Notes: generated by a model not told the origin, from the letters alone. A DNA stretch of 64,000 nt from Myxococcales bacterium (GCA_047601445.1 JASGJH010000001.1:544001-608000); one strand, 5' to 3'. Positions 38,096 to 59,943 are shown, numbered from the stretch's first letter. Program-made: numbers and translations.

Positions 38096-41000
38096 TTGAC
38101 CGACCCAGTCGGTGAGGCCAGACAAGCGCCCTTTCGGACACCCCGGGGGCGCTCAGACGTTCCCGGAATCGAAGCAGGCGGAGCTCCCGTGATATTCGAA
38201 GACCCCTCTCGTAGGCGATGGCGTGCGGCCGTAGCTGGATTCGTGCTCATCGTCAGCGGCGTGCTCGGCGTGATCGCGCTGGCCGCCATGGGCGTGCTGA
38301 CGCCGGTCGACCTTCCGAACATCTTCGAGAAGCGTCCCAGTGTGAGGGCGCGGGAGCTGAGCCGCTGGCACGACAGCTACGTCAAGCCGGTCTACTCGGC
38401 CAAGCAGATGAAGGTGCTGGCACGTAAGCGCGCGGTGGAGCAGCGTCGACGCGCCAAGGTGGTGCAGGACGCGGCCGACACCGTGCTACCCCTGCCCGAG
38501 CACGCCGTGGTGGCCTTCAGCGTGCGCGATGACTCGGCTGCACAGGCGTCCCTGGAGCGGCACATCAAAGAGATCGACGTCGTGATCCCCGACTGGTTCA
38601 GCGCGGCAGGGCCGGGCTGCGCCATCGAGGAGCATATCGACGCACCGAGCCAGCGCATCTTGGCCAGCACCGACGTGCTCGTGCTGCCGCGCATCGCGAA
38701 CCTCTCGGGCCAGACCTGGCGAGGTGAGTCCTTCGCCGCGATGATGCGCGACGACGTCCAGCGCGGCTGTTTCGTCGACAAGCTGACGAAGCGCCTGGTG
38801 GATCTGGGAGCCGATGGCGTCAACGTCGACGTGGAGGAGTTGGCGCCCGAGGATTCCGAGCCGCTGCTCGAGCTGCTGGTGGATCTCAAGAACGCGCTGC
38901 ACGCCCGCGGTATGCGCCTGACGGTGGACGTCGCCTTCTACGATACGGCCTACGACCTCGAGTTCATCGGGCAGGTGGCCGACGCTGTGTTCGTGATGGG
39001 GTACGACCAGCACTATCCGGCCTCCGAGCCGGGGCCGGTGTCCGGTCGCAAGTGGTTCAATGAGTCGGTCCAGGCGGCGCTCACGCGCGTCAATGCGGAC
39101 CGCCTGGTCGTGGCCATCGGCGCCTACTGTTACGACTGGATCGTCGCGGAGAACGCGCCCGCCGCGGAGAGCCTCTCCTTCCGCGAGGCCATGGACCGCG
39201 CACGGGCGGCCGGGGCGGTGCCGGAGTTCGAGCGCGACGCCGAGAACGCGCGTTTCGGATACAGCGACGCGCAACAGCAGGTCCACGAAGTATGGTGCCA
39301 GGACGCGCTGAGCGCCTGGAACCAGACGGCCACGCTGGCCGACCACGGCATCTCGCGGGTGGCGTTGTGGCGCCTGGGAACCGAAGACGAGACTCTGTGG
39401 AGCTTCCTGGGCGCGAAGCAGCGGCCGGCGGCCGCGAGCGTGCTGTCCACGATTCAGCAGACCCGCTCGGTGGACTTGTTCGGAGAAGGCGAGGTGCTCA
39501 CCATCCGTTCCGAGCCCACGCCCGGCAAGCGCTCCATGGAGGTGGACGGTCGTAACCGTGTCTCCTACGCGCGCTACGAACAGGCGCCCACGGGCTTCCT
39601 GGTCGAGCGGCGCGGGTCGCAGGCCAAGGACCTCGTGCTCACCTTCGACGACGGACCTGACCCGAAATGGACGCCGGGGGTGTTGAAGGCGCTCAAGGAG
39701 CTGGAAGTCCCCGGTACGTTCTTCGTGGTCGGCGATCAGGCCATGCAGTATCCGGATTTGGTCGCGGACATCGATCGCGCGGGTCACCTGATCGGCAATC
39801 ACACCTTCAGCCATCCCCATCTCGATCGACTGACGCCCGCCGAAACCGTGGTGGAGCTCAACGCCACCGCACGCTTGCTCGAGGGCCTCACGGGCACGCG
39901 CTCGCCGCTGTTCCGCGCGCCGTACACGGCCAACGTCGACCCGAGTCGGCCCGAGGACCTGGGCCCCCTGCGCGTTGCCCTGCAGAACGGCTATGTGTTC
40001 GTTGGCGCCAACGTGGACCCGCTCGACTGGGACTCGCCTGGACCTCAGGTCATCGCGCAGCGCATGGTGGAGCAAGCGGAGCAGGGGGGACGCGTCGTCT
40101 TGTTGCACGACGGCGGCGGCGAGCGCGCGGATACCATCGCGGCCCTGCGCATCGCGGTGCCCGAGCTGCGCAAGCGCGGCTACCGCTTCGTGTCGGTGGA
40201 TCAGTACATGGGCGTTGCGCGCGCCGAGCTCGTGGAGCCCCTGAGCCCCAAGGAACACGCCCTGGCGTGGGGAAACCTCAGTGTGGCGCGCGCGCGTAGC
40301 TGGGGTTGGCTGTTGCTCGAGCTACTGTTCGTGGGCTGCACGATTCTCGCCGTGGTGCGTGTGATCATGCTGGGCGCGCTTACGCTCGCCCAGGCGCGAA
40401 AGCGCGAGACCACGCGCCGTGAAGGTTACGAGCCGCTGGTGACGGTACTGGTCCCCGCGTTCAACGAGGGACTCGTCATCGACCGCACCATCGACACGCT
40501 GCTCAACACGGGATACGAGAAGCTCGAAATCCTGATCATCGACGACGGCTCCAGCGACGACACGGCAGAGGTCGTGGAGCAGCGCTCGCTCAAGGACGCG
40601 CGCGTGCGCCTCTTGCGTAAGGCCAACGGCGGTAAGGCCCACGCGGCCAACGCAGGCCTTGCAGTGGCGAATGGCGAGATCGTCGTGGCGGTGGACGCCG
40701 ACACCTTGATCCTTCCTGGCGCGATCGAGCGTCTCGTGGCGCACTTCGGCGATCCCGAGGTCACTGCGGTCTGCGGCAACGTCGAAGTCGGCAACGTCAA
40801 CTCGTGGCTCACGCGTTTTCAGGCCATCGAGTACGTCACGAGCCAGAACTTCGACCGTCGCGCCTTCGCGCTGCTGAACTCCATCAGCGTGGTCCCGGGA
40901 GCGCTCGGTGCTTGGCGCCGGGACGCGGTGCTCAAGGTGGGGGGCTACAGCTCCGATACGCTCACCGAGGACGCCGACCTGACGCTCACCATGCTGCGCG

Positions 41001-41515
41001 CCGGTGGACGCATCGAGTACGAGCCGCGCGCCGTAGGCCGCACCGAAGCACCCGAGACCGTGAGCGCCCTGCTGAAGCAGCGTTTCCGCTGGACCTACGG
41101 CACCTATCAGTGCCTCGTCAAACACAGGAAGGGCTTCTTCAAGGGCACGCTCGGCTGGGTGGGCATGCCGAACATGGTGGTCTTCCAGGTGCTCTTCGCG
41201 GCGCTCAGCCCCATCGGCGACCTCGTCATGCTGCTCTCGCTGTTCCGCGGCGACGCCGGGGCGTTCTTGGCGGGCTATCTGGTGTTCTTGCTGATGGACG
41301 TATGCGGTTCGCTGCTCGCTTTCATGCTCGACGACAAGCCCAAGCGCTGGCTCTGGATGCTCCTCGTTCAGCGCTTCACCTATCGCCAGCTCATGTACTT
41401 CGTGAGCCTCAAGGCGATGATCGCCGCCCTGCGCGGCGCGCGCCACGGGTGGAAGAAGCTCGAGCGCACCGGAAGCGTTGAGCTTGCTCCTGCCAGCACG
41501 CCGCAGGCCGAATAG
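38096..41515 (+). CDS. GH18-like + polysaccharide deacetylase (CE4) + processive GT2 fusion protein
   Basis: DGVNVDVEE, MGYDQH, ALWRLG (GH18); TFDDGP, HTFSH, FRAPY, LLHDGG (NodB); DDGS, DAD, TED, QRFRW (GT2). Start may be GTG 38189 after GGAG. Confidence 0.92.
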   Translation: MTDPVGEARQAPFRTPRGRSDVPGIEAGGAPVIFEDPSRRRWRAAVAGFVLIVSGVLGVIALAAMGVLTPVDLPNIFEKRPSVRARELSRWHDSYVKPVYSAKQMKVLARKRAVEQRRRAKVVQDAADTVLPLPEHAVVAFSVRDDSAAQASLERHIKEIDVVIPDWFSAAGPGCAIEEHIDAPSQRILASTDVLVLPRIANLSGQTWRGESFAAMMRDDVQRGCFVDKLTKRLVDLGADGVNVDVEELAPEDSEPLLELLVDLKNALHARGMRLTVDVAFYDTAYDLEFIGQVADAVFVMGYDQHYPASEPGPVSGRKWFNESVQAALTRVNADRLVVAIGAYCYDWIVAENAPAAESLSFREAMDRARAAGAVPEFERDAENARFGYSDAQQQVHEVWCQDALSAWNQTATLADHGISRVALWRLGTEDETLWSFLGAKQRPAAASVLSTIQQTRSVDLFGEGEVLTIRSEPTPGKRSMEVDGRNRVSYARYEQAPTGFLVERRGSQAKDLVLTFDDGPDPKWTPGVLKALKELEVPGTFFVVGDQAMQYPDLVADIDRAGHLIGNHTFSHPHLDRLTPAETVVELNATARLLEGLTGTRSPLFRAPYTANVDPSRPEDLGPLRVALQNGYVFVGANVDPLDWDSPGPQVIAQRMVEQAEQGGRVVLLHDGGGERADTIAALRIAVPELRKRGYRFVSVDQYMGVARAELVEPLSPKEHALAWGNLSVARARSWGWLLLELLFVGCTILAVVRVIMLGALTLAQARKRETTRREGYEPLVTVLVPAFNEGLVIDRTIDTLLNTGYEKLEILIIDDGSSDDTAEVVEQRSLKDARVRLLRKANGGKAHAANAGLAVANGEIVVAVDADTLILPGAIERLVAHFGDPEVTAVCGNVEVGNVNSWLTRFQAIEYVTSQNFDRRAFALLNSISVVPGALGAWRRDAVLKVGGYSSDTLTEDADLTLTMLRAGGRIEYEPRAVGRTEAPETVSALLKQRFRWTYGTYQCLVKHRKGFFKGTLGWVGMPNMVVFQVLFAALSPIGDLVMLLSLFRGDAGAFLAGYLVFLLMDVCGSLLAFMLDDKPKRWLWMLLVQRFTYRQLMYFVSLKAMIAALRGARHGWKKLERTGSVELAPASTPQAE

Positions 41516-41521
41516 AAGAAA

Positions 41522-41683
41522 CGGCCATCGGCCATCAGCTCTCGGCGAGCCGCCACCAGCGAGCCGCCATGAGCCATCGGCGAGCTGCCATGAGCCCGCG
41601 CGCGGCTTGCCGCATGCTGCTTGCTGGCCGTCCGCTGAGCGCTGATGGCGGCCTGCGGATGGCCGCTTACCGCTTACCGCTTA
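41522..41683. repeat. Heptamer-periodic palindromic intergenic element
   Basis: GGCCATC x2, GCGAGCyGCCA x3, CCGCTTA x3; inverted pairs GCCATCAGC/GCTGATGGC and CGGCCATC/GATGGCCG; lies between convergent genes. Confidence 0.65.
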
Positions 41684-42259
41684 CCGACTCGCGTGCACCA
41701 CGATGATTTCGCGCAGGCGCTTGGAGTCGGACGCGTGCTCGACCTCCACGCGGTACATGCCGGGCTTCTCGACATGGACTTCGAGAGGCGGCGCTTCGGC
41801 AGTGGTCGGGTGCAAGAACTCGTACACGCAGCCTGCGCTGTGGCAGCTCGGCTCCGCCGTGTGCAGCACCTGGCTCGTAGGACTGACCTTGAGGCCGTGG
41901 GGTAGGTCCATGCGCACGGAGGCGAACTCGGCGTCGTGTTGGTCCAGCGAAAGGATCAGCGGCAACGCTGCGTGCCCTTCATCCGGCAGTTCAATCCGGT
42001 GCTCCACGAACGGCTCCTCACCGCCGGTGGGATCGAGCAGCACGAGGTGAGCCGCGATGGCCATGGAAGCCAAGGCGGGCAGGCTCAATCGAAGGTGACT
42101 GAACTTGGTGGAGCGCTTGCGCCGGCGCTCCTGGGCCGCGGCGTTCTCCTGCCTCTCCGCGTCCACCAGCGCTCGCAGCAAGCGGGCCTCGAGCTCCGGC
42201 GTGGGCTCCACCAATCGCACGTTCTTGAGTGCTCTGCGCAAGGGATCGTTGGACTTCAT
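41681..42259 (-). CDS. Putative membrane-anchored anti-sigma factor
   Basis: Coupled to the ECF sigma (ATGA); N-terminal helical domain (EPTPELEARLLRAL), basic patch, one TM, beta-rich C-terminal domain with a Cys pair. Confidence 0.7.
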   Translation of the reverse strand: MKSNDPLRRALKNVRLVEPTPELEARLLRALVDAERQENAAAQERRRKRSTKFSHLRLSLPALASMAIAAHLVLLDPTGGEEPFVEHRIELPDEGHAALPLILSLDQHDAEFASVRMDLPHGLKVSPTSQVLHTAEPSCHSAGCVYEFLHPTTAEAPPLEVHVEKPGMYRVEVEHASDSKRLREIIVVHASR

Positions 42260-42975
42260 GTCGCACCTGCATCGTCGGTGTTGGGCCGAGTCGACGTGGC
42301 GCAGACAGCGACCGCCTCGGGGGCGGCGCCTACCATGGCAGCCCTCAGTCGGGCGTGGCCACGCGCGTGACGACTCTTGACCGTGCCTAGTGGCAAAGAC
42401 AGGGCTTCACTGACTTCCTGATAGCTAAGCTCTTCGATGTCGCACAGCCAGACCACCGTGCGGTAGGGCTCCGGCAGCGCGCGCACGGTGCGCAACACGG
42501 ACTCGGTGTCGCGCAGCATCTCGAGGGAGTGCTCCGGGGTCGGTAGAGGATTGGGGCCGTTCTCGTTGCCGAACCAATCTTCGAACAGTGTCCCGAAGCG
42601 TTCCAACGCCTCACGCACCAGCCCGCGGCGGCGCGCTGTGTGGCGCACGGAGTCCATGTGCTCGTTGCGGACGATGCCGTAGAGCCAGCCGAGGAGGGGC
42701 GCTTCGGCGCGGTAGCTCGAGCGGTGCTGGTACGCTTTGACCAACGCGTTCTGGAGCAGGTCCTCGGCCGCTTCGGGGCTGTCGGCCAGGGTACGGCACA
42801 ACCTCAGAAGCGGCGGAAACAATGGACGCACGGCCCGCGCGAAATCTTCGCGTGACCATGCTTCGCAGGCTGACCCGAGATCGCGTACCGCTTCTTCTTG
42901 GGTCTCAACCGGTAGGAGACGCACGGCGCTGATCATACGGAGCCAAACCCCTGGTTGCCACGTGAAGTCACGCAT
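42256..42975 (-). CDS. ECF RNA polymerase sigma factor
   Basis: AEDLLQNALVKAY, WLYGIVRN (region 2); LPEPYRTV...LSYQEVSEALSLPLGTVKSRHARG (region 4). Start probably ATG 42975 rather than 42990. Confidence 0.92.
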   Translation of the reverse strand: MRDFTWQPGVWLRMISAVRLLPVETQEEAVRDLGSACEAWSREDFARAVRPLFPPLLRLCRTLADSPEAAEDLLQNALVKAYQHRSSYRAEAPLLGWLYGIVRNEHMDSVRHTARRRGLVREALERFGTLFEDWFGNENGPNPLPTPEHSLEMLRDTESVLRTVRALPEPYRTVVWLCDIEELSYQEVSEALSLPLGTVKSRHARGHARLRAAMVGAAPEAVAVCATSTRPNTDDAGAT

Positions 42976-42980
42976 CTGGA

Positions 42981-43008
42981 AAGACGCCATGAACGACCGG
43001 CCGGTTCC
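42981..43008 (-). promoter_or_regulatory. ECF-type autoregulatory promoter
   Basis: Minus strand GGAACC-N16-CGTCTT, a few nt before in-frame ATG 42975. Confidence 0.6.
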
Positions 43009-43075: not shown

Positions 43076-45289
43076 TCAGTCTTCGACCACGCGTGCGAGG
43101 GCGCGCGTGTGAGATTCCGCCAACACTTGGACTGGAACGTCGAGCACATCCTCGATCTCGAGGGTGTCTCCACCCACGAAGCCGAGCAGGCTGAAGGGGA
43201 CCCCGAGTGTTTCGCAGCGCTCCTGGACCTTGGCCCGTTGCTCGGGAGCGAAGCTTACTACCACCCTGGAGGGTTCCTCGTGGAACAACTTGGGGAGCGG
43301 GTCGGTCCCGCCCGCCGCGGGCAGCTCCACGGAGCAGCCGATGCGCCCCGCGATGCAGCACTCGGCCAGCGCCACACCCAGGCCGCCGTCGCTCACGTCG
43401 TGGGCGCTCGACAGGAGGCGATCGCGCGCCAGGTCCAGCACGGCGCGCTGCAACTTCACTTCGGCTGCCAGGTCCAGCGTCAGGGCCTGCCCGCGCAGCT
43501 CCCCCGTGCGCGAGACCAGGAACTCGGAGCCCGCGAGGTTCCCGCCCCCGGGGACGCCGAGCAGCGCGACCATATCGGCCTGACGCACGAAGCCGATGCC
43601 CATGCGGTCGCTGGCATCACGCAGCTGACCGACCACGGCCACCGTAGGCGTGCCGGGCGCGGACCCTTCACGCAGCGCCACCGAGCTCTGCACCACGGGC
43701 AGCTTGAGTGCCAGACAGGCGTCGCGGACCCCATCGACCATCTCGGACAGGCGCCAGTTGGTCTCGGGCTGATCGGCGTGACCCAAGCTCAAGCCCACGG
43801 CGATGCCGAGCGCTTCGGCGCCCACGCACACCACGTTGCGGGCGCACTCGGCCACTGCCATCGCCGCACCCTGGCGCGGATCGAGCTGGGCGTGCCGGCC
43901 GTGGCCGTCCACGGAGAGCGCGATCCACTTCTCCTTGGTGTTCTCGTCCTCGGAGGAGAAGCGCAGCAGGGCGGCGTCGCCGACGGCGTTGCGGCCGCCA
44001 CCCGTGCGCGCACTGCTGTCGAGACGACGCATGAGCCATTCGCGGCTCCCGACGTTGACCGACCCGAGCAAGCGCACGAGTTCGCTCTCTGCGTCCTCGT
44101 TGCGTTTGAGCGCCAGGGCAGGCGTCGTGGGGTCGAGCTGAGCCGCCTTGACGGGGCGCTCGTAGGAAGGCGCGTCCTGTACCAGCAGGGACACTGGCAG
44201 GTCCGCCACCACCACCTGCTTGGCCTCCGAGGTGCTCTTGCTCGCGCTCTCGTCGGGGCTCGCCTTGCACACCACGCGGCCCGTGTTCGTCACGCGTCCG
44301 ATCACCCGGGCGGGGACTTCGTGGCGCTGGAAGACCTCGAGCACCGCGTCCTCGCGTCCCTTGCGCACCACCAACAGCAAGGCCTCGGCAGGTGCGCACA
44401 GTGCCTGGAACGGCGAAGGACGCTCGGTCCCCCGCGGCAGCGCGTCGAGGTCGATTTCGACGCCCGTCTCACCGCGCGCGGCCAGGCGCACGATGGCGCC
44501 GGCCAAGCCCGAGACGCCGATGCCCGCAGCACCCTCGATGGAGCCGAGCTTGAGGGCCGCCAGGCAGCTCTCGTTGAGTCGCTTGTGGATGTCTTCGGCG
44601 GCCTGAGCGCCGAGCACACCTGCATAGAGTAGGGTGTTGCCGAGCCCGGTGGCTCGCCCCTCGGCCAGCGCTTCGCTGCGCGCTACCCCGAGACCGATTC
44701 CCTGCACCAACTGCAAGGCCTCGTAGCGGCTGTCGAATCCGAGATCGCCGCCCGCGATGCCGACGGCCATGCTCTTGCTCAGGCCGGCCAATCGCTGCGC
44801 CAGTTCCTTGAGCTGATCGGCGGTCTGCACTTCGCCAGGGGTGCCCAATCGCAGCGCGTCGAAGAGCGCGAGCGGCTCGGCGCCGGTGGCGACCACATCG
44901 CGCATGGCGCTGCCGAGACACATGGCTGCCGCGGCCCCGAGATCACTCAGCTCTTGCTTGGGCTCTGCCCATGCCAGCGAGAACACGGCGCATTGCCCGT
45001 CGCCGAGATCGAGCGCTGCTGCGCCGCCGAGACTGCTGCTGCGCACGACGTGAGCACCAGAGGTCGGCAGGCGTCGCGTATGGACCCGCGAAGACTTCTG
45101 TGACTCGCGCTCTGACCAGAGCACCGAGAGCACGCCCAGCTCGGCGTGAGTAAGGTTGCGGGCCAACTCCTTGACGGCGCGTGAGAGCTCCGTTTCAGAC
45201 AGGCCGAGCGTGCGAGCGAGCTCCGCTGTGACTTCCGGATCCCCTGGAAAAGGAACCACTTTTGTATCTGTCTTCTTCGCTGTGGCCAT
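43076..45289 (-). CDS. PurL (small FGAM synthase) paralog lacking catalytic motifs
   Basis: Colinear with small PurL over 737 aa (GLSETE..ELGVLSVLWSE, GDAALLR, AVAECARNV, SAHDVSDGGL, LFHEEPSR), but the SEHC, ESHNHP, DMGAAG and ESQER motifs are replaced. Confidence 0.85.
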   Translation of the reverse strand: MATAKKTDTKVVPFPGDPEVTAELARTLGLSETELSRAVKELARNLTHAELGVLSVLWSERESQKSSRVHTRRLPTSGAHVVRSSSLGGAAALDLGDGQCAVFSLAWAEPKQELSDLGAAAAMCLGSAMRDVVATGAEPLALFDALRLGTPGEVQTADQLKELAQRLAGLSKSMAVGIAGGDLGFDSRYEALQLVQGIGLGVARSEALAEGRATGLGNTLLYAGVLGAQAAEDIHKRLNESCLAALKLGSIEGAAGIGVSGLAGAIVRLAARGETGVEIDLDALPRGTERPSPFQALCAPAEALLLVVRKGREDAVLEVFQRHEVPARVIGRVTNTGRVVCKASPDESASKSTSEAKQVVVADLPVSLLVQDAPSYERPVKAAQLDPTTPALALKRNEDAESELVRLLGSVNVGSREWLMRRLDSSARTGGGRNAVGDAALLRFSSEDENTKEKWIALSVDGHGRHAQLDPRQGAAMAVAECARNVVCVGAEALGIAVGLSLGHADQPETNWRLSEMVDGVRDACLALKLPVVQSSVALREGSAPGTPTVAVVGQLRDASDRMGIGFVRQADMVALLGVPGGGNLAGSEFLVSRTGELRGQALTLDLAAEVKLQRAVLDLARDRLLSSAHDVSDGGLGVALAECCIAGRIGCSVELPAAGGTDPLPKLFHEEPSRVVVSFAPEQRAKVQERCETLGVPFSLLGFVGGDTLEIEDVLDVPVQVLAESHTRALARVVED

Positions 45290-45360
45290 GCTGGGCGGCG
45301 AACCTTAGCCCGCGCGGTTGGTGCGGGCCAGGTGTCGCCGACTTGCCGCACAGCCCTGAC

Positions 45361-45981
45361 TCACCCGGGCGTACCCGAGTCGAGAAGCGAAAGTAGCTCC
45401 GAGGTGGCGAGGGCAGGGTCCGCCGCGGACAGCACTTCGCGCACCACAGCTATGCCGCGTGCCCCTGATTGGCGTAGTTCGGCCACGTCCGCGGCGCGCA
45501 CTCCCCCCAGGGCGTACACAGGCAGTCGTACGGCCGCGATCGTGCGTGCGAACCCGGCGATTCCGAGCGGGGGCCCCTTGGCCGCCACCTCGTGGACCGG
45601 TGACAGGGTGGCGTAGTCGGCGCCCTGGCGGGCGGCCTCGAAGAGCCCCTTGAGGTCATGGCGCGAGACCCCGACCCAGCGTTGGGAGCCCAAAAGTTTG
45701 CGCGCCACCTCGATCGGCAGTCCCGCCTCGGGGAGCTGTACGCCGTCGGCTTCCACGGCCAGCGCGATGTCGACCCGATCGTTGATGAGCAGGGTGCTCT
45801 CGCGGGCCCGGGTGAGGGCGCGCAGCTCCAGGGCGACCCCCAAGATCTCACGGGTGGTGCTCTGGCGCGTTCGGAGCTGGACGGCCACGCGGCGGGGGGG
45901 CACGGCGGACAGGGCCCGCGTCAGGCGACCCACCAGGTCCGGCCCCTCGTCGGTGATCAGAATCAGGTCAAAGGACGGCAT
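45361..45981 (-). CDS. thiE: Thiamine phosphate synthase (ThiE/TenI family)
   Basis: VQLR, LLINDRVDIA, ADGVQL, GVSRH, GADYATLSPV, PVYALGGV, GIAVV. Confidence 0.85.
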   Translation of the reverse strand: MPSFDLILITDEGPDLVGRLTRALSAVPPRRVAVQLRTRQSTTREILGVALELRALTRARESTLLINDRVDIALAVEADGVQLPEAGLPIEVARKLLGSQRWVGVSRHDLKGLFEAARQGADYATLSPVHEVAAKGPPLGIAGFARTIAAVRLPVYALGGVRAADVAELRQSGARGIAVVREVLSAADPALATSELLSLLDSGTPG

Positions 45982-45996
45982 GGGCGCGCCCTCTCC

Positions 45997-46317
45997 TCAT
46001 TCGTCGACGTCGGTGTCCTCGCCGGCTTCGGCGCGTTCGGGGGCGCTCTTTTCGAGCTTGTCGAGCTCCTTCTCGTCGAGCTCGGGCAGGCCAAGTTCGG
46101 AGCGTGCCCGCTGTGCATAGCGCGAGCCAGGGTACTGCTCGACGATCTGTCGCAACGTGGTTTCGCGTGCTTTGTCATCGCCTTCCTTCTGGAACCGCTC
46201 TGACAGAATCCAAAGTGCCTTGGGGGCCGTGTCCTCGAGGGGGCGCTCGTTTTTGCTCGTCGCGCACTGATACGGGGCCAAAAGCGCCGCGCACAAGGCA
46301 AGTACCGCAGACTTCAT
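45997..46317 (-). CDS. Small lipoprotein-like protein with single TPR-like hairpin
   Basis: Hydrophobic N-terminus ending [22 protein letters not shown] resembles YbgF/BamD-type TPR; ATGA-coupled to thiG. Confidence 0.7.
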
Positions 46318-47099
46318 GCTCTCTCCGATCCAATCACGCCTTCGAGCGGGCTCGACGCCGTGGCGTACAGCTTCTTGGGGATGCGCCCCGAAAGGTAGGC
46401 CAGCCTACCTGCCTCCACGGCCAAGCGCATCGCGCGCGCCATGCGCACCGGATCCTTGGCGCCAGCGATGGCGGTGTTCATCAGCACGCCATGGCAACCG
46501 AGCTCCATGGCGATGGCGGCGTCGGAGGCGGTGCCCACGCCGGCGTCGACGATGACCGGGACCTTCGACTGCTTGAGGATGATCTCGATGTTGTAGGGAT
46601 TGCGGATGCCGAGGCCCGAGCCGATGGGGGCGGCCAGCGGCATGACCGCGGCGCAGCCGATGTCCTCGAGCTTCTTGCAGGTGATGGGATCGTCGTTGGT
46701 GTAGGGCAGCACGGTGAAGCCCTCCTTGACCAACACGCGCGCGGCCTCGAGCGTCTGCTCGACGTCCGGGAACAGCGTGGCCGGATCGCCCAGCACCTCG
46801 AGCTTGACCAGGCTGCTCATGCCGGCCTCGCGGGCCAGCCGGCACGTACGCACCGCGTCGCTGGCGGTGTAGCAGTGGGCGGTGTTCGGAAGCAGCGTGA
46901 ACTTGCGCTCCCGCAGATACTCGAAAAGGGCTTGATCCTGAGGCTTGGAGAGATCCACGCGCCGTACGGCGACCGTGACTACCTGGGCGCCGGAGGCGTC
47001 GAGTGCCGCCTTGGTCTCCTCGAGATCCTTGTACTTGCCCGTGCCCACGAAGAGACGGGATTCGAACGTATGCGGACCAATAGTGAGCACGTCTTGCAT
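46314..47099 (-). CDS. thiG: Thiazole synthase
   Basis: [50 protein letters not shown]. Confidence 0.97.
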
Positions 47100-47126
47100 G
47101 GGCTTTGGTACCTGGGTTGCCGGGGT

Positions 47127-47327
47127 TCAGCCGCCGCCCACGAACTGGACGACTTCGAGCTTGTCGCCCTCGAGGAGGCAGGTAGAGGCGTGTTGTGCGC
47201 GCGGGACGATGTCGGCGTTGCGCTCGACTGCCACGGGGCGCTCGCCGAGTCCCAGTGTCTCGAGCAATACGCCGATGGTGAGGCCTTCCTGCACCTCGCG
47301 CGGCTCGCCGTTGATCTCGATGCGCAT
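47127..47327 (-). CDS. thiS: Sulfur carrier protein ThiS
   Basis: MRIEINGE...[12 protein letters not shown]...[10 protein letters not shown]-terminal GG. Confidence 0.95.
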
Positions 47328-47414
47328 GCGGGCGAGCCTAGCAGCGGCCCCGGGTTTCACCAACGCGCACGAAGAGACCGCGCAGCCCCCTTCCCATGAC
47401 CCGTAGCCAGCCCA

Positions 47415-55200: not shown

Positions 55201-56118
55201 ATGGTCGACGTAAGCAAGCACCGCCTCACGCACCTCCGGCAGCTCGAAGCCGAGAGCATCCACATCATCCGTGAAGTAGCCGCCGAGTTCGAGAAGCCGG
55301 TGATGCTCTACTCCATCGGCAAGGACTCCACGGTGCTCGCGCGCTTGGCGATCAAGGCGTTTCATCCGGCGCCCGTGCCGTTCCCGCTGCTCCACGTGGA
55401 CACCACCTGGAAGTTCCGGGACATGTACGCCTTTCGCGAGAAGTTCGTGAAGGACAACAACCTCAACCTGATCAAGTGGACGAATCCCGACGGCTTGCGG
55501 GACAACGTGAACCCCTTCGATCAGGGCTCCGAGAAGTACACCACGATCATGAAGACTCAGGCGCTGGTGCAGGCGCTCACGAAGCACGGCTTCGACGCCG
55601 CCTTCGGTGGTGCCCGCCGCGACGAAGAGAAGTCGCGCGCCAAGGAGCGCATCTACAGCTTCCGAGACCGCTTCCAGCAGTGGGATCCCAAGAATCAGCG
55701 GCCCGAGCTGTGGAACCTCTACAACTCCAAGATCAACCGCGGTGAGAGCATCCGCGTGTTCCCGATGTCCAACTGGACCGAGCTCGACATCTGGCAATAC
55801 ATCTACCTCGAGCAGCTGCCCATCGTGCCGCTCTACTTCGCGGCGCCGCGCCCGGTGGTGGAGCGTGGTGGCTCGTTGATCATGGTGGACGACGAGCGCA
55901 TGCGCTTGAACCCCGGCGAGACGCCGATGACGAAGATGATCCGCTTCCGCACGCTCGGTTGCTACCCGCTGTCGGGCGCCATCGAGAGCGAAGCGACCAC
56001 GCTGCCCGAGATCATCCGCGAGATGTTGATGACGCGTTACTCCGAGCGGCAGGGCCGCTTGATCGATCACGACCAGGCCGCGTCCATGGAGCGCAAGAAG
56101 CGCGAGGGTTACTTCTGA
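55201..56118 (+). CDS. cysD: Sulfate adenylyltransferase subunit 2
   Basis: [49 protein letters not shown]. Confidence 0.97.
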
Positions 56119-57986
56119 TGTCGACCGCAACCCAGAACGTAAGCGCCAAGTCCGACGAAGAGCTGATCGACAAGGACATCCTGGGCTTCCTGCAGAAGCA
56201 CGAGAACAAGGAGCTCCTGCGCTTCGTGATCGTGGGCTCCGTGGATGACGGCAAGAGCACGCTCATCGGCCGCCTCCTGTTCGAGCTCAAGGCGGTCTAC
56301 GAGGACCAGCTCGAGGCCGTGATGAAGGCGACCACCATGGTCGGCGTGCCGATCGACTTCTCGCTCATCACCGACGGCCTCGAGGCCGAGCGCGCCCAGG
56401 GCATCACCATCGACGTGGCCTATCGGTACTTCACCACCGAGAAGCGCAAGTTCATCGTGGCGGATACGCCCGGCCACACCCAGTACACGCGCAACATGGT
56501 GACCGGTGCCTCCACGGCGGACGTGGGCATCATCTTGATCGACGCGCGCCTGGGCGTGCTCGAACAGTCCCGCCGCCACGCTTACATCGCGTCGCTTCTG
56601 GGGATCCCGCACCTGCTGGTGGCAGTGAACAAGATGGACCTGGTGGAGTACGGTCAGGCTCGCTTCGAGGAGATTCAGGCCGAGTTCCGCAAGTTCACGG
56701 CGAGTCTGAACTTCAAGGACGTGACGTTCGTGCCCGTCAGCGCCCTGTTGGGCGAGAACGTGGTGCAGCGCGGCGAGCACATGCCCTGGTACGAGGGCCC
56801 CACCGTGCTCGGTTTCTTGGAGACGGTGCCGATCGCCGAGGATCGCAATCTCAAGGACTTCCGCTTCCCCGTGCAGTACGTGATCCGTCCGCACCTCAAC
56901 TACCGCGGCTTTGCTGCGCAGTTGGCGAGCGGCGTGGTGAAGAAGGGGGACTCGGTGATGGTGTTGCCCTCGGGCAAGACCTCCCGCGTGAAGGGCATCG
57001 ATGCCTTCGACGGCGAGCGCCAGGAGGCGTTCATGCCCGAGAGCGTGACGATCCGACTCGAAGACGAGATCGACTGCTCGCGCGGCGACATGCTGGTGCA
57101 CCCGAACAACCGCCCACGCGTGGGACGCAGCTTCCAGGCCGACGTGGTGTGGATGCACGAGCGCCCGCTGGATCCACAGAAGAGCTACTTCCTCAAGCAC
57201 ACCTCGCAGACCATCCGCATGCAGGTGGAGATGGTGCACGACCGCATCGAGCTCACCACTCTGGAGCGGGTGCCCGCGCAGACTCTCGCGCTGAACGAGA
57301 TCGGCTGCCTCACCATCACCTGCCACCGCCCGGTCTACTACGACGCCTACCTCGACAACCGAGCCACGGGCGCCTTCGTGATCGTGGACTCCCTGAATAA
57401 CGCCACCGTGGCGGCCGGCATGATCCGGCGCGACGAGGGCGAGGCCGACCAGAGCGTGGACGATGCGCTCAAGGAGCTGCGCGCCGGCTCGGGTCTCGCC
57501 AACCGCACTCAGGTGAGCCCCAAGGAGCGACGCGAGCGGCTCGGTCAGACGGGCGTGACGGTGTGGCTCTCGGGCTTGCCGGGGTCCGGCAAGGTCAACG
57601 TGGCCTACGTACTCGAGCGCAAGTTGTTCGATATGGGACACTCGGCCCACGTGCTGGCTCCCGAGGGGCACGCCATCGAGGCCGTCGCCGTGGCCGCCAA
57701 GGCGCTCACCGACGCGGGGCTCATCTCCATCTGCGCCTTGCCCGCCAAGACACGCGCGGAGCGCGCCCTGGTACGCGAGAAGGTCGGGGGCGAGCGCTTC
57801 GTGGAGGTCTTCGTGAACACGGACCCTGCCATCAGCGCCGAGCGTAAGCCCGACGCAGACCGCGTCGGCTTCGAAGCGCCGGCCCAGCCGGACCTCACGT
57901 TGTCGCAGGACGACTCTCGCGTGGAGCGCGCCGTCGACAAGATCATCGAACTCCTGGCCAAGCGCAGCCAGGTGGACCTCGGCTGA
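56118..57986 (+). CDS. cysN: Sulfate adenylyltransferase GTPase subunit fused to a degenerate APS-kinase domain
   Basis: GSVDDGKSTLIGRL, QGITIDVAYRYF, DTPGH, NKMD; C-terminal CysC-like WLSGLPGSGK..DAGLI..FVEVFV..FEAP lacking LDGD and lid. Confidence 0.93.
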   Translation: MSTATQNVSAKSDEELIDKDILGFLQKHENKELLRFVIVGSVDDGKSTLIGRLLFELKAVYEDQLEAVMKATTMVGVPIDFSLITDGLEAERAQGITIDVAYRYFTTEKRKFIVADTPGHTQYTRNMVTGASTADVGIILIDARLGVLEQSRRHAYIASLLGIPHLLVAVNKMDLVEYGQARFEEIQAEFRKFTASLNFKDVTFVPVSALLGENVVQRGEHMPWYEGPTVLGFLETVPIAEDRNLKDFRFPVQYVIRPHLNYRGFAAQLASGVVKKGDSVMVLPSGKTSRVKGIDAFDGERQEAFMPESVTIRLEDEIDCSRGDMLVHPNNRPRVGRSFQADVVWMHERPLDPQKSYFLKHTSQTIRMQVEMVHDRIELTTLERVPAQTLALNEIGCLTITCHRPVYYDAYLDNRATGAFVIVDSLNNATVAAGMIRRDEGEADQSVDDALKELRAGSGLANRTQVSPKERRERLGQTGVTVWLSGLPGSGKVNVAYVLERKLFDMGHSAHVLAPEGHAIEAVAVAAKALTDAGLISICALPAKTRAERALVREKVGGERFVEVFVNTDPAISAERKPDADRVGFEAPAQPDLTLSQDDSRVERAVDKIIELLAKRSQVDLG

Positions 57987-58200
57987 CGCGGCGCGCGGAC
58001 GCGGCCGACGCCATGTCCCCAGCGCGTCTTCGAGAACCCCGACGCCCGTCGCGATGAATCGCGGCGGAATTGGGTAATTCTTGAATTTCGAGCAGTTAAC
58101 GAATTCGGGCGTCGCGCGCCGTGCCCGCGTGATAGGGTCCGCCCCGGATGGCGCTGTCTCGCGCATCCCATCGCCAATCCGCTGTTCAGTCGGAGGGATC

Positions 58201-59943
58201 ATGCGTCGAACCACGAGGATCCGAGTGCCGTGGGGGATGATCGCGGGCGTGTGGCTCGCTGCGTGCTCGGGATCCCACGACGATGAGCTCGGCAATGACG
58301 GCACCAGCATGGACGGCTCCATCGCGGGCGACGGAGCCGCAGGGGATCCTCCCAGCGACGCTGCGCTCGGTCACGATGCCGCCAGCGACGGGGACAGTTC
58401 TGGGGACGGTGACGGCGGGCGCGGGCAGGGCGATGGCGATGCAGGTTCGTCCGACGCAGGGGGCGACGCTTCCAGCGAGATCCCACGCAATAAGATTGTG
58501 TGGGTCAACGCGAGCAGCGGCAGCGACGGCAATGCCGGTACCAGCGAGGCGCCCTTCAAGACCGTGGCTTACGCGTTTTCTCAAGTAGGCGAGCACGGCC
58601 TCGTGTGGCTGCAACCGAGCGCCTTTACCAACGCCAACGAGGGTTTTCAGGGTACGGAAATCTATGACGGCGTGCACGCGCCGCTCGACACCTTCGTGCG
58701 CGGCACCGGCCCAGGCGTGACCGTCGGCATCACGCTCAACTATGCGCAGGGCGGCAGCCTCGAGGACGTGGCCGTGGAGCTGGCGGAAACCGGGCGTGTG
58801 TTGGTGACAGGGGGCGCGCTGCGCTTGCTCGGCGTGAGCTTTCAGCGCTCGGCCACCAGCGGTGTGCTCGACCCCATCGAGGTGAGCGGCGACGCCAAGG
58901 TAACCTTGGAGCCAGGCAACGATCCGAACCACGACTACATCGGCCCGGGTGCCGCGCCGGTCGGCACCTTCGCGATGTTGCGCGACGCCTCCGAGTTCGC
59001 TGTGAAAGGCGGCGTCATCGACGGCTTCAGCGGTCGCGCGTTCTACCTCGACGGCACGGCTCGACTCACGCTGCAGAACGTCGCGATCACGGACAACGCC
59101 AACATGTTGGTCAGCAACGAGGGCGTGCTCTCCCTCAACAGCAAGGCCAGCCACATCTTGCTCGAAGACACCACCCTCGACATGCAGAACCACGGCGGCG
59201 CGGCCTGCATCATCCAGGACGACCAGGTGTTCGACGCGGATCCCACCACCACGACGATCACGGTGCGACGCTCCAAGCTCAAGGGCTGCTGGGGCGGCGG
59301 CATGCAGCTGCGGGAGGGTGACCCCGTGGTCGTGGTGGAAGACAGCGAGTTCAGCCAGTCCACCGGGCGCTACGGCATCGAGAGCGGACAAATTGGCTTC
59401 GATAGCGGGCAAGTCTTCGGGAAACCCAAGCTCACTGTCACGGGCTCCACCTTCAGCAACAACTACATGGGCGGCATCGCCATGCGCTCGGGGGGCTCGC
59501 TCTCCCTCAGCGGAGGCACGGTGACGGCCAACGGTCGCACGGGGTTCCCCGGCGACGCCGGCGTGCTCCTCACGGGCGGCTTTCCTTATGCGCTGGCGAT
59601 GCGCGGCGTGAGCGTCACCAACAATTTCATGTCGGGTGTCTCCGTGTCCGGCGATGGAAGCGCGAGCTTCGACTTGGGGACCCTGGCCAGTCCGGGGAAC
59701 AACGTGCTCACCGGCAATGCCACCCAGCAATTGCGGCTCGAGACCGCGGCCGACTCCGTGGTGCCAGCCATCGGCAATACCTGGACCGCGAGCCAGCAAG
59801 GGGCGGGCGCGGACGGCCGCTACGCTGTGTCGAGTGCCCACTGCGGGAACGCGAATCCGTGTCAGTTCACGAGCGGCACCGGCATCAACTACGCGTTCGT
59901 CGGCGCCGGGACCAACGCTCGCGTGCAGCTCGCCGCCCAGTGA
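58201..59943 (+). CDS. Lipoprotein with DUF1565-like motif and parallel beta-helix
   Basis: LAAC lipobox, Gly/Asp linker, VWVNASSGSDGNAGTSEAPFKTV, N/G-rich beta-helix repeats, DLGTLASPGNN. Confidence 0.8.
   Translation: MRRTTRIRVPWGMIAGVWLAACSGSHDDELGNDGTSMDGSIAGDGAAGDPPSDAALGHDAASDGDSSGDGDGGRGQGDGDAGSSDAGGDASSEIPRNKIVWVNASSGSDGNAGTSEAPFKTVAYAFSQVGEHGLVWLQPSAFTNANEGFQGTEIYDGVHAPLDTFVRGTGPGVTVGITLNYAQGGSLEDVAVELAETGRVLVTGGALRLLGVSFQRSATSGVLDPIEVSGDAKVTLEPGNDPNHDYIGPGAAPVGTFAMLRDASEFAVKGGVIDGFSGRAFYLDGTARLTLQNVAITDNANMLVSNEGVLSLNSKASHILLEDTTLDMQNHGGAACIIQDDQVFDADPTTTTITVRRSKLKGCWGGGMQLREGDPVVVVEDSEFSQSTGRYGIESGQIGFDSGQVFGKPKLTVTGSTFSNNYMGGIAMRSGGSLSLSGGTVTANGRTGFPGDAGVLLTGGFPYALAMRGVSVTNNFMSGVSVSGDGSASFDLGTLASPGNNVLTGNATQQLRLETAADSVVPAIGNTWTASQQGAGADGRYAVSSAHCGNANPCQFTSGTGINYAFVGAGTNARVQLAAQ

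Follow-up and report, generated by a model that had tools for sequence, protein, structure and literature searches.

A predicted small-PurL pseudoenzyme maintained by selection throughout a genus of Polyangiales

Why should a bacterium keep a full-length purL gene whose product seems unable to do the work of PurL? The question is raised by a gene, here called purL*, in a 64,000-nucleotide stretch of DNA from a Myxococcales bacterium (GCA_047601445.1, JASGJH010000001.1:544001-608000; "the window" means this whole stretch). Its product, P0001, is a real pseudoenzyme, present throughout the genus and under selection, for which we infer a function below.

43076..45289, minus strand: purL*, the apparently dead small PurL of 737 amino acids (open reading frame (ORF) calling, Pfam, AlphaFold, Foldseek)

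The ORF starts with ATG and contains no internal stop. Its G+C contents at the first, second and third codon positions (GC1/2/3 = 0.74/0.49/0.83) resemble those of the nearby thiE and thiG genes. P0001 has the Pfam domains FGAR-AT_linker, AIRS, and AIRS_C, which is the duplicated PurM-like fold with a linker domain. The closest solved structure is T. thermophilus PurL, 3viu (E 4e-74). The AlphaFold model, calculated from a 118-row alignment, had a predicted local distance difference test score (pLDDT) of 92.8, and Foldseek placed 3viu on top with a template modeling (TM) score of 0.87; the model is biased toward the active-enzyme fold, because active enzymes were in its alignment. An earlier annotation made from the sequence alone (the sequence-only reading) had described an intact 737-residue ORF colinear with small PurL, and this description holds. 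Identity to active small PurLs of the same order is 37-44%, and P0001 lies under both curated small-PurL cut-offs (362 against 525.75 bits for TIGR01736, and 417.9 against 648 bits for PRK01213).

For the comparison of the catalytic site, homologs of at least 680 residues were dereplicated at 90% identity, which gave 46 dead and 70 canonical sequences. Residues were mapped by aligning P0001 to the solved chains of T. maritima (Tm) and Salmonella (St) PurL. The following segments are affected.

45095..45118, minus strand: WSERESQK, residues 58-65; the first catalytic His (Tm H32, St H216) is Arg61, and Tm Y35 is Gln (alignments)
44954..44980, minus strand: SLAWAEPKQ, residues 104-112; KxESHNHPS is lost (Tm K68, E70, H72; St H296 is A108) (alignments)
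44579..44617, minus strand: what is left of the Gly-rich catalytic loop after a deletion of 26 residues (alignment, length count)
44507..44527, minus strand: AGIGVSG, residues 255-261; QDMGAAG is lost (Tm D236; Asp in 70/70 canonical against 2/46 dead sequences)
44378..44398, minus strand: CAPAEAL, residues 298-304; SESQERM is lost (alignment)
43775..43798, minus strand: VGLSLGHA, residues 498-505; the C-half catalytic-site motif CLNFG is lost (His498 in 38/46 dead sequences)
43667..43687, minus strand: SSVALRE, residues 535-541; the C-half catalytic-site motif GNVSLYN is lost (alignment)

Among 140 aligned homologs (nine duplicates were removed beforehand), 60 keep none or one of the seven catalytic motifs and 79 keep all seven; one split-frame sequence keeps four. 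This split means that the loss is not a matter of chance. Tm positions H32, Y35, K68, E70, S71, H72, N73, H74, D236, and N478, which we take to have catalytic or ligand roles, are invariant in 70/70 canonical sequences; in the 46 dead ones, other residues mostly take their place. The first catalytic His and the Asn of GNVSLYN, both found in 70/70 canonical sequences, are absent from the common residues of the dead clade. Of the presumed ATP/Mg ligands (Tm K68, E70, D94, D236, N478), only D94 is kept in P0001, as D131, and it is kept in 31/46 of the clade. The segment corresponding to KxESHNHPS is 13-21 residues long in the dead sequences, against 16 in 70/70 canonical ones. Between G224 and L238, the Gly-rich (lid) loop has 13 residues in P0001, against 39 in 64/70 canonical sequences; its length across the dead clade is 13 to 32 residues. 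P0001 thus lacks both catalytic histidines (R61, A108) and the Gly-rich loop by which small PurL is recognized. All motif readings of the sequence-only reading, lost and surviving, including the loop deletion, were right. As judged from these alignments, the FGAM (formylglycinamidine ribonucleotide)-synthase site and the catalytic loop of purL* are destroyed.

The dead clade is named FGAM synthase in databases and its fold is intact, as would be expected if it were a still-active, ammonia-dependent FGAM synthase needing no PurQ. However, the two histidines have gone, along with the metal ligands and the catalytic loop, and far smaller deletions in this loop suffice to inactivate the enzyme: according to PMC7124931, two-residue deletions in the Gly-rich loop of Salmonella PurL abolish FGAM production. 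An intact large PurL is, moreover, encoded in the same genome. Residual activity of this kind is considered extremely improbable.

The second, auxiliary nucleotide site presents a different picture.

43961..43981, minus strand: GDAALLR with D438, equivalent to St D679; kept (Asp in 44/46 dead sequences)
43832..43858, minus strand: AVAECARNV with E481 and N485, equivalent to St E718 and N722; kept (46/46 dead, 70/70 canonical)
43382..43408, minus strand: SAHDVSDGG with D631 and D634, equivalent to St D884 and D887; kept (H630 and D631 in 46/46 dead sequences, Asp or Glu at 634 in 46/46)

E481, N485, D631, and D634 are presumably Mg ligands of this site. By residue match, the predicted auxiliary Mg-ADP site of P0001 is composed of D438, D461, E481, N485, H630, D631, and D/E634; the motif LFHEEPSR is also present. 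St D679 sits near the phosphate of the auxiliary ADP, according to PMC3815217. In alignment, the C-terminal half of P0001 matches the catalytic half of T. maritima PurL, as the internal two-fold predicts. The sequence-only reading held that the catalytic half had been rewritten and the ADP half kept. Loss of the site and retention of the ADP residues are both borne out, but the division by halves is not: two of the lost motifs are in the C-terminal half, and the positions that mirror these two in the N-terminal half (D/N144, G181, D/N/E182) are retained by 46/46 dead sequences. On this residue evidence, the loss tracks the catalytic site and not the N-terminal half, and the auxiliary-ADP residues of both halves are retained.

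Some positions in the former ATP pocket are newly conserved in the dead clade: Q64 in 46/46, E62 in 41/46, and H498 in 38/46. R130 (Tm R93), which we take to be a phosphate contact, is kept in 46/46. These residues might indicate a remodelled ligand sensor or a new enzyme, in which the former active site binds another phosphorylated metabolite or the auxiliary site, being a symmetric copy of the catalytic site, does ATP chemistry. At site 1 the PurM-superfamily signature Asp is, however, variable (D in 31, S in 9, E in 3, and N in 2), and at site 2 its place is taken by Asn, which active PurL also has there; the lid loop varies in length as described above, and ThiL is already a separate gene in the source genome and in 8/10 of the genus. 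This explanation is regarded as rather doubtful. It should be mentioned that purL* follows thiE and that its auxiliary site is ThiL-like, so that replacement of ThiL was considered as a role of its own; it was rejected on the occurrence of ThiL in those 8/10 genomes. Nor does P0001 resemble ThiL itself, a single PurM-like chain of ~320 residues: its thiL profile score is 29.9 bits, under the cut-off of 184.

Selection on purL* was assessed from orthologs in the ten genomes of the genus. In 9/9 Polyangiales congeners the ortholog is full-length, stop-free, 51-82% identical, and degenerate. Pairwise ratios of nonsynonymous to synonymous substitution (dN/dS; Nei-Gojobori) for the five closest pairs were 0.05 (G008-G009), 0.12 (G002-G003), 0.12 (G000-G007), 0.14 (G000-G004), and 0.14 (G004-G007). 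The neighbouring thiE and thiG gave 0.13-0.18 and 0.03-0.07, respectively. Deeper pairs gave 0.2-0.6, with dS saturated. None of the marks of a pseudogene (stops, frameshifts, dN/dS near 1) appears across 10/10 genomes at dS about 1. Judged from these substitution patterns, purL* is maintained by purifying selection, and it is very probably dead as an FGAM synthase and selected nonetheless.

A slowly decaying relic, kept solely by selection against misfolding or by its linkage to thi genes, would fit the progressive erosion, of which the G001/G008/G009 branch retains more ancestral motif remnants, and the A1 subdomain, which evolves 13-15 times faster than in active enzymes relative to clock genes. 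The uninterrupted frames argue against decay, and so does A1 itself, with dN/dS of 0.08-0.19 in the five closest pairs. In addition, the adjacent purQ was deleted while the C-terminus was tightened and a promoter-like element was kept. A relic is therefore very unlikely.

How the catalytic step could be given up is suggested by the rest of the source genome (9.5 Mb, one contig, 98.7% complete). The search for another canonical purL proposed by the sequence-only reading led to a large PurL at C1:8646334-8650200, far over cut-off, with intact motifs and unlinked to purL*; PurM and PurD are also present. No PurS was detected in this genome (control 12/14) and no PurQ outside the large PurL, and profiles built from the PurS and PurQ of the nearest relatives gave zero matches. 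The genome-encoded PurS and PurQ on which a small PurL depends are thus missing. The same holds for the genus: PurS was found in 0/10 genomes, against 24/31 other genomes of the order, and free PurQ over cut-off in 0/10, against 23/31. Large PurL was found in 9/10 genus genomes, whole in six of them. Seven of the 31 other genomes carry a large PurL, and in these no small-PurL match and no PurS were found. Loss of small PurL is therefore the usual outcome. A profile of the C-terminal segment, run over 301 genomes of the order (including one unpublished genome, G122, which bears on no other claim), reached 244 bits or more only in the ten genus genomes; the next score was 165. The dead clade is one side of a branch with support of 100 (FastTree, midpoint root), and its named members are proteins of metagenome-assembled genomes from Polyangiales or Myxococcaceae.

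The gene order upstream of purL* explains where the gene came from.

45361..47330, minus strand: thiS-thiG-small TPR-like gene-thiE, ancestrally the genes upstream of purQ-purL (gene order)

thiE stands immediately before purL* in 9/10 genus genomes (the tenth is at a contig end), here with a gap of 71 bp. Related families have thiE-(signal peptidase)-purQ-purL at this position; in G016 and G036 the order is thiS-thiG-thiE-signal peptidase-purQ-purL, and thi genes are near purL in 5/11 non-genus loci examined. The purQ and signal peptidase genes are missing from the purL* locus. Since the ancestral order is kept, purL* is the original small purL, from in front of which purQ was removed. Accordingly, of the proposal that purL* is a maintained non-catalytic paralog, the maintenance (dN/dS far below 1) and the loss of catalysis stand, but purL* is a positional ortholog of small PurL and not a duplicate.

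The sequence-only reading had also offered a scaffold or decoy for PurS/PurQ. ADP is reportedly required for assembly of PurS, PurQ, and PurL (Hoskins 2004), and the fold and auxiliary site are kept, as such a role would need. With 10/10 genomes lacking PurS and free PurQ, nothing in the source genome matching the relative-built profiles, and purQ gone from the locus, the proposal is contradicted and is given next to no likelihood. The putative partner of purL* is neither PurS nor PurQ. The ADP sensor and the re-purposed ligand binder, which the sequence-only reading also suggested, may still apply.

The partner might instead be the large PurL. As a specific form of the explanation favoured below, purL* could regulate large PurL or other purine or thiamine enzymes, or be a vestigial scaffold of a purine cluster. 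The two PurLs co-occur in 9/10 genomes, and D424, at the position of the gate residue St D657, is acidic in 46/46 dead sequences. Viral dead PurL homologs recruit cellular PFAS (PMC7605207), and PurL has been proposed as a scaffold (PMC10912719), although E. coli PurL, in the same review, interacts but does not act as one. The loop following D424, invariant in active enzymes, has anywhere between 16 and 27 residues in the dead clade. The gene for large PurL, moreover, is unlinked. This specific form is considered unlikely.

Constraint has tightened in the C-terminal region.

43079..43474, minus strand: residues 606-737 (B2 subdomain), candidate binding surface; alone among the segments, it is under more constraint than its counterpart in active small PurL

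Rates were calibrated with three clock genes, PurM, PheS, and PurD. Relative to these, residues 606-737 evolve at 1.01/1.54/0.94 in the dead clade, against 1.70/2.03/1.59 in active enzymes, which corresponds to a 1.3-1.7-fold slowing, whereas every other segment is faster in the dead clade. A comparison matched for depth by PurD identity (49 canonical genomes, of which 30 were added, against eight of the genus) gave a similar result. At PurD identities of 0.76-0.82, the identity over residues 606-730 was 0.83 (0.78-0.86, 15 pairs) in the dead genus and 0.65 (0.55-0.76, 52 pairs) in active enzymes; at 0.70-0.76, the values were 0.76 and 0.61. Polar sites that vary in the outgroup are invariant in the eight genus genomes at 12/23 positions of the C-terminal segment, against 11/56 in PheS and PurD together; in the linker the count is 8/14. 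An overlapping gene or RNA was rejected as the cause of this conservation: dS in B2 is about 1, so synonymous sites are free, and an open antisense frame in codon alignment, of just 177-246 codons, occurs in 3/10 genomes.

A second peculiarity is found at the other end of the protein.

45242..45289, minus strand: N-terminal extension of basic character, residues 1-16, peculiar to the dead clade (KK count)

KK occurs within the first ten residues in 42/46 dead and 0/70 canonical sequences, where the start sites are predictions.

From these observations, purL* is probably a retired small PurL that has been retained for a non-enzymatic job, as an ADP-stabilised binding or adaptor protein acting through its C-terminal surface. 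In this explanation, the large PurL would have taken over step 4 of purine synthesis and so freed the small PurL. The protein might still fold around Mg-ADP, and the subdomain of residues 606-737, with its fixed polar residues, might serve as the binding or adaptor surface, perhaps assisted by the new basic N-terminus. It is likewise favoured, with fair confidence, that selection acts on a non-catalytic binding role in which the C-terminal half is central.

Several points weigh against this explanation. The calibrated slowing of residues 606-737 is just 1.3-1.7-fold, and the raw identities over residues 561-737 (0.77 in the dead genus, 0.46 in active enzymes) exaggerate the difference, since the sequences of the genus span less divergence than those they are compared with. 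The p-values of the polar-site comparison are too small, because genome pairs are not independent, and residue type and secondary structure, rather than coordinates, were used to judge surface exposure. dS is close to saturation in most pairs. Every genome is an uncultured assembly; in G001, G006, and G008 the large PurL is in pieces, and in G003, which is 72% complete, none was found. Gene context at the purL* loci yields no candidate partner. Retention of the ADP residues may reflect folding alone. In PMC3815217 and PMC13013826, the auxiliary ADP of PurL is called structural, vestigial, or of unknown function. A folding role is favoured over sensing, because the ADP of the human enzyme appears, according to PMC13013826, to be buried during folding and non-exchangeable.

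Dead small PurLs are not confined to this clade. A profile search of 1.84 billion representatives was made, of which the best 150 matches were listed. Among 161 aligned rows, 21 were labelled degenerate, 14 of them outside the purL* clade. On the FastTree tree, nine changes are needed to place the degenerate small PurLs, at least eight of them forced by well-supported branches, a count weakened by long branches, skewed composition, a library favouring divergent sequences, and the presence of several single sequences. A second dead clade of 28 sequences, one named Bdellovibrionota (P0256, P0260, P0262, P0266, P0298-P0321), lacks the same catalytic residues; D438, E481, R484, N485, H630, and D631 are retained in 28/28. 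In 22/28 there is also a basic motif at the N-terminus, like MAIKxRRGxLYPP. This second clade differs from the purL* clade in its separate branch, its identity of 20-36% by region, and the loss of D634 and R130. This recurrence might reflect an old second function of small PurL in the auxiliary-ADP half, as a nucleotide-dependent adaptor or energy-state sensor, uncovered repeatedly once catalysis moves to a large PurL or is lost; this is held as a tentative possibility.

Further degenerate small PurLs on separate branches are P0127, P0167, P0189, P0196, P0224, P0237, P0240, P0268, P0207, P0242, and P0264. The auxiliary signature survives in most of them, and the catalytic loop is shortened in several; both sites are lost in P0207, P0242, and P0264. 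No dead relatives of P0189 were found among 118 further matches. P0128, P0141, and P0162 are otherwise canonical small PurLs of 891-1261 residues, with what looks by eye like an intein insertion at the GNC/CIGVP site.

The immediate surroundings of purL* include two further features.

45302..45331, minus strand: promoter-like element CTGGCC-N18-TAAGGT, 12 nt before the ATG, putative in function (upstream comparison)
41681..42990, minus strand: extracytoplasmic function (ECF) sigma factor and an overlapping 192-residue gene without known family, possibly an anti-sigma factor (frequent, not obligate)

The -10-like hexamer of the promoter-like element, GCTA[AC][GT]GT, is found upstream of purL* in 10/10 genus genomes, in 7/10 at 12 nt from the ATG. 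The full pattern occurs once in the genome, and a scan with the sigma-70 consensus did not flag it. G001, G008, and G009 (L015, L078, L079) have a longer leader, with an AAGGAG ribosome site after the same hexamer; in the other seven genomes, with just 12 nt before the ATG, the transcript would be near-leaderless. The ECF sigma pair adjoins purL* in 4/10 genus genomes and in 5/8 metagenome loci of the clade. It was rejected as the partner of purL*, as it was not found, with the queries used, in 5/5 other genus genomes that keep purL* (72-90% complete); nor was it found in four non-genus genomes tested. At window positions 38096-41515 (plus strand), a 1139-residue fusion protein combines a GH18 domain with a polysaccharide deacetylase and a GT2 glycosyltransferase; in several congeners its gene converges on the ECF pair or on purL* itself. 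The small TPR-like gene between thiG and thiE (45997-46317, minus strand) looks like a lipoprotein gene and is also found in G013 and G039. In canonical relatives, thiE is followed by an S26 signal-peptidase-like gene (L081:4493-5119, with equivalents in L082, L085, L086, and L090), the one missing from the genus locus. Another 737-residue ORF in the window (56109-58322, minus strand) has no Pfam match at E 0.01. An Rfam scan of the window gave 0 matches and no riboswitch, atlas searches returned only PurL clusters or matches under 0.9, and a homodimer prediction for residues 431-737 scored 0.12, against a mark of 0.42. Elsewhere, G002:C987:4212-5228, G003:C531:5126-6142, and G017:C206:3549-4577 encode a PurM that is full-length but divergent (E about 1e-48, below cut-off) and differs from that of other genus members; this may be a second replacement in the purine pathway.

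Compared with small PurL (TIGR01736, PRK01213; PDB 3VIU, 2HS0-2HS4, 3D54), purL* shares length, domain order, fold, auxiliary-site residues, and genomic position. It differs in the absence of the catalytic residues and loop and of PurS/PurQ from the genome, in the greater conservation of its C-terminal 130 residues, and in its new basic N-terminus. Within PurL itself, the auxiliary (A2/B2) half is likewise a non-catalytic PurM-like half, one that holds Mg-ADP of structural or unknown function (PMC3815217, PMC13013826); in purL* neither half is catalytic, and conservation is greater in the auxiliary one. A precedent is given by the gammaherpesvirus vFGARAT/vGAT proteins (ORF75 family), which, according to PMC7605207, are derived from PurL, cannot make purines, and are retained for another role. 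Both are PurL-derived with catalytic residues lost, but purL* scores 75.8 bits against the vFGARAT cut-off of 716.1 (TIGR01739). The viral proteins are virion proteins derived from a host large PurL with its glutaminase domain, whereas purL* is bacterial and chromosomal, a small PurL without that domain that has been inherited in place; a protein-binding role is known for the former and proposed for the latter. By analogy, purL* may work like the herpesviral PurL pseudoenzymes without belonging to their family. A literature search, with subscription papers and supplements outside its range, found no paper on a bacterial dead PurL.

As dead PurLs are annotated as FGAM synthase in databases, metabolic models are misled by them. 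purL* provides a clean record of how a bacterial pseudoenzyme originates: a replacement enzyme was present, the partners were deleted, and the old gene was kept in place under selection, with the sister lineages that lost small PurL serving as controls. Because evolution removed catalysis and both partners yet kept the auxiliary ADP site, the role of this site can be tested alone. If the old second function proves true, the repeated dead PurLs would mark an unrecognised class of bacterial pseudoenzymes and would explain the ADP of unknown function in PurL.

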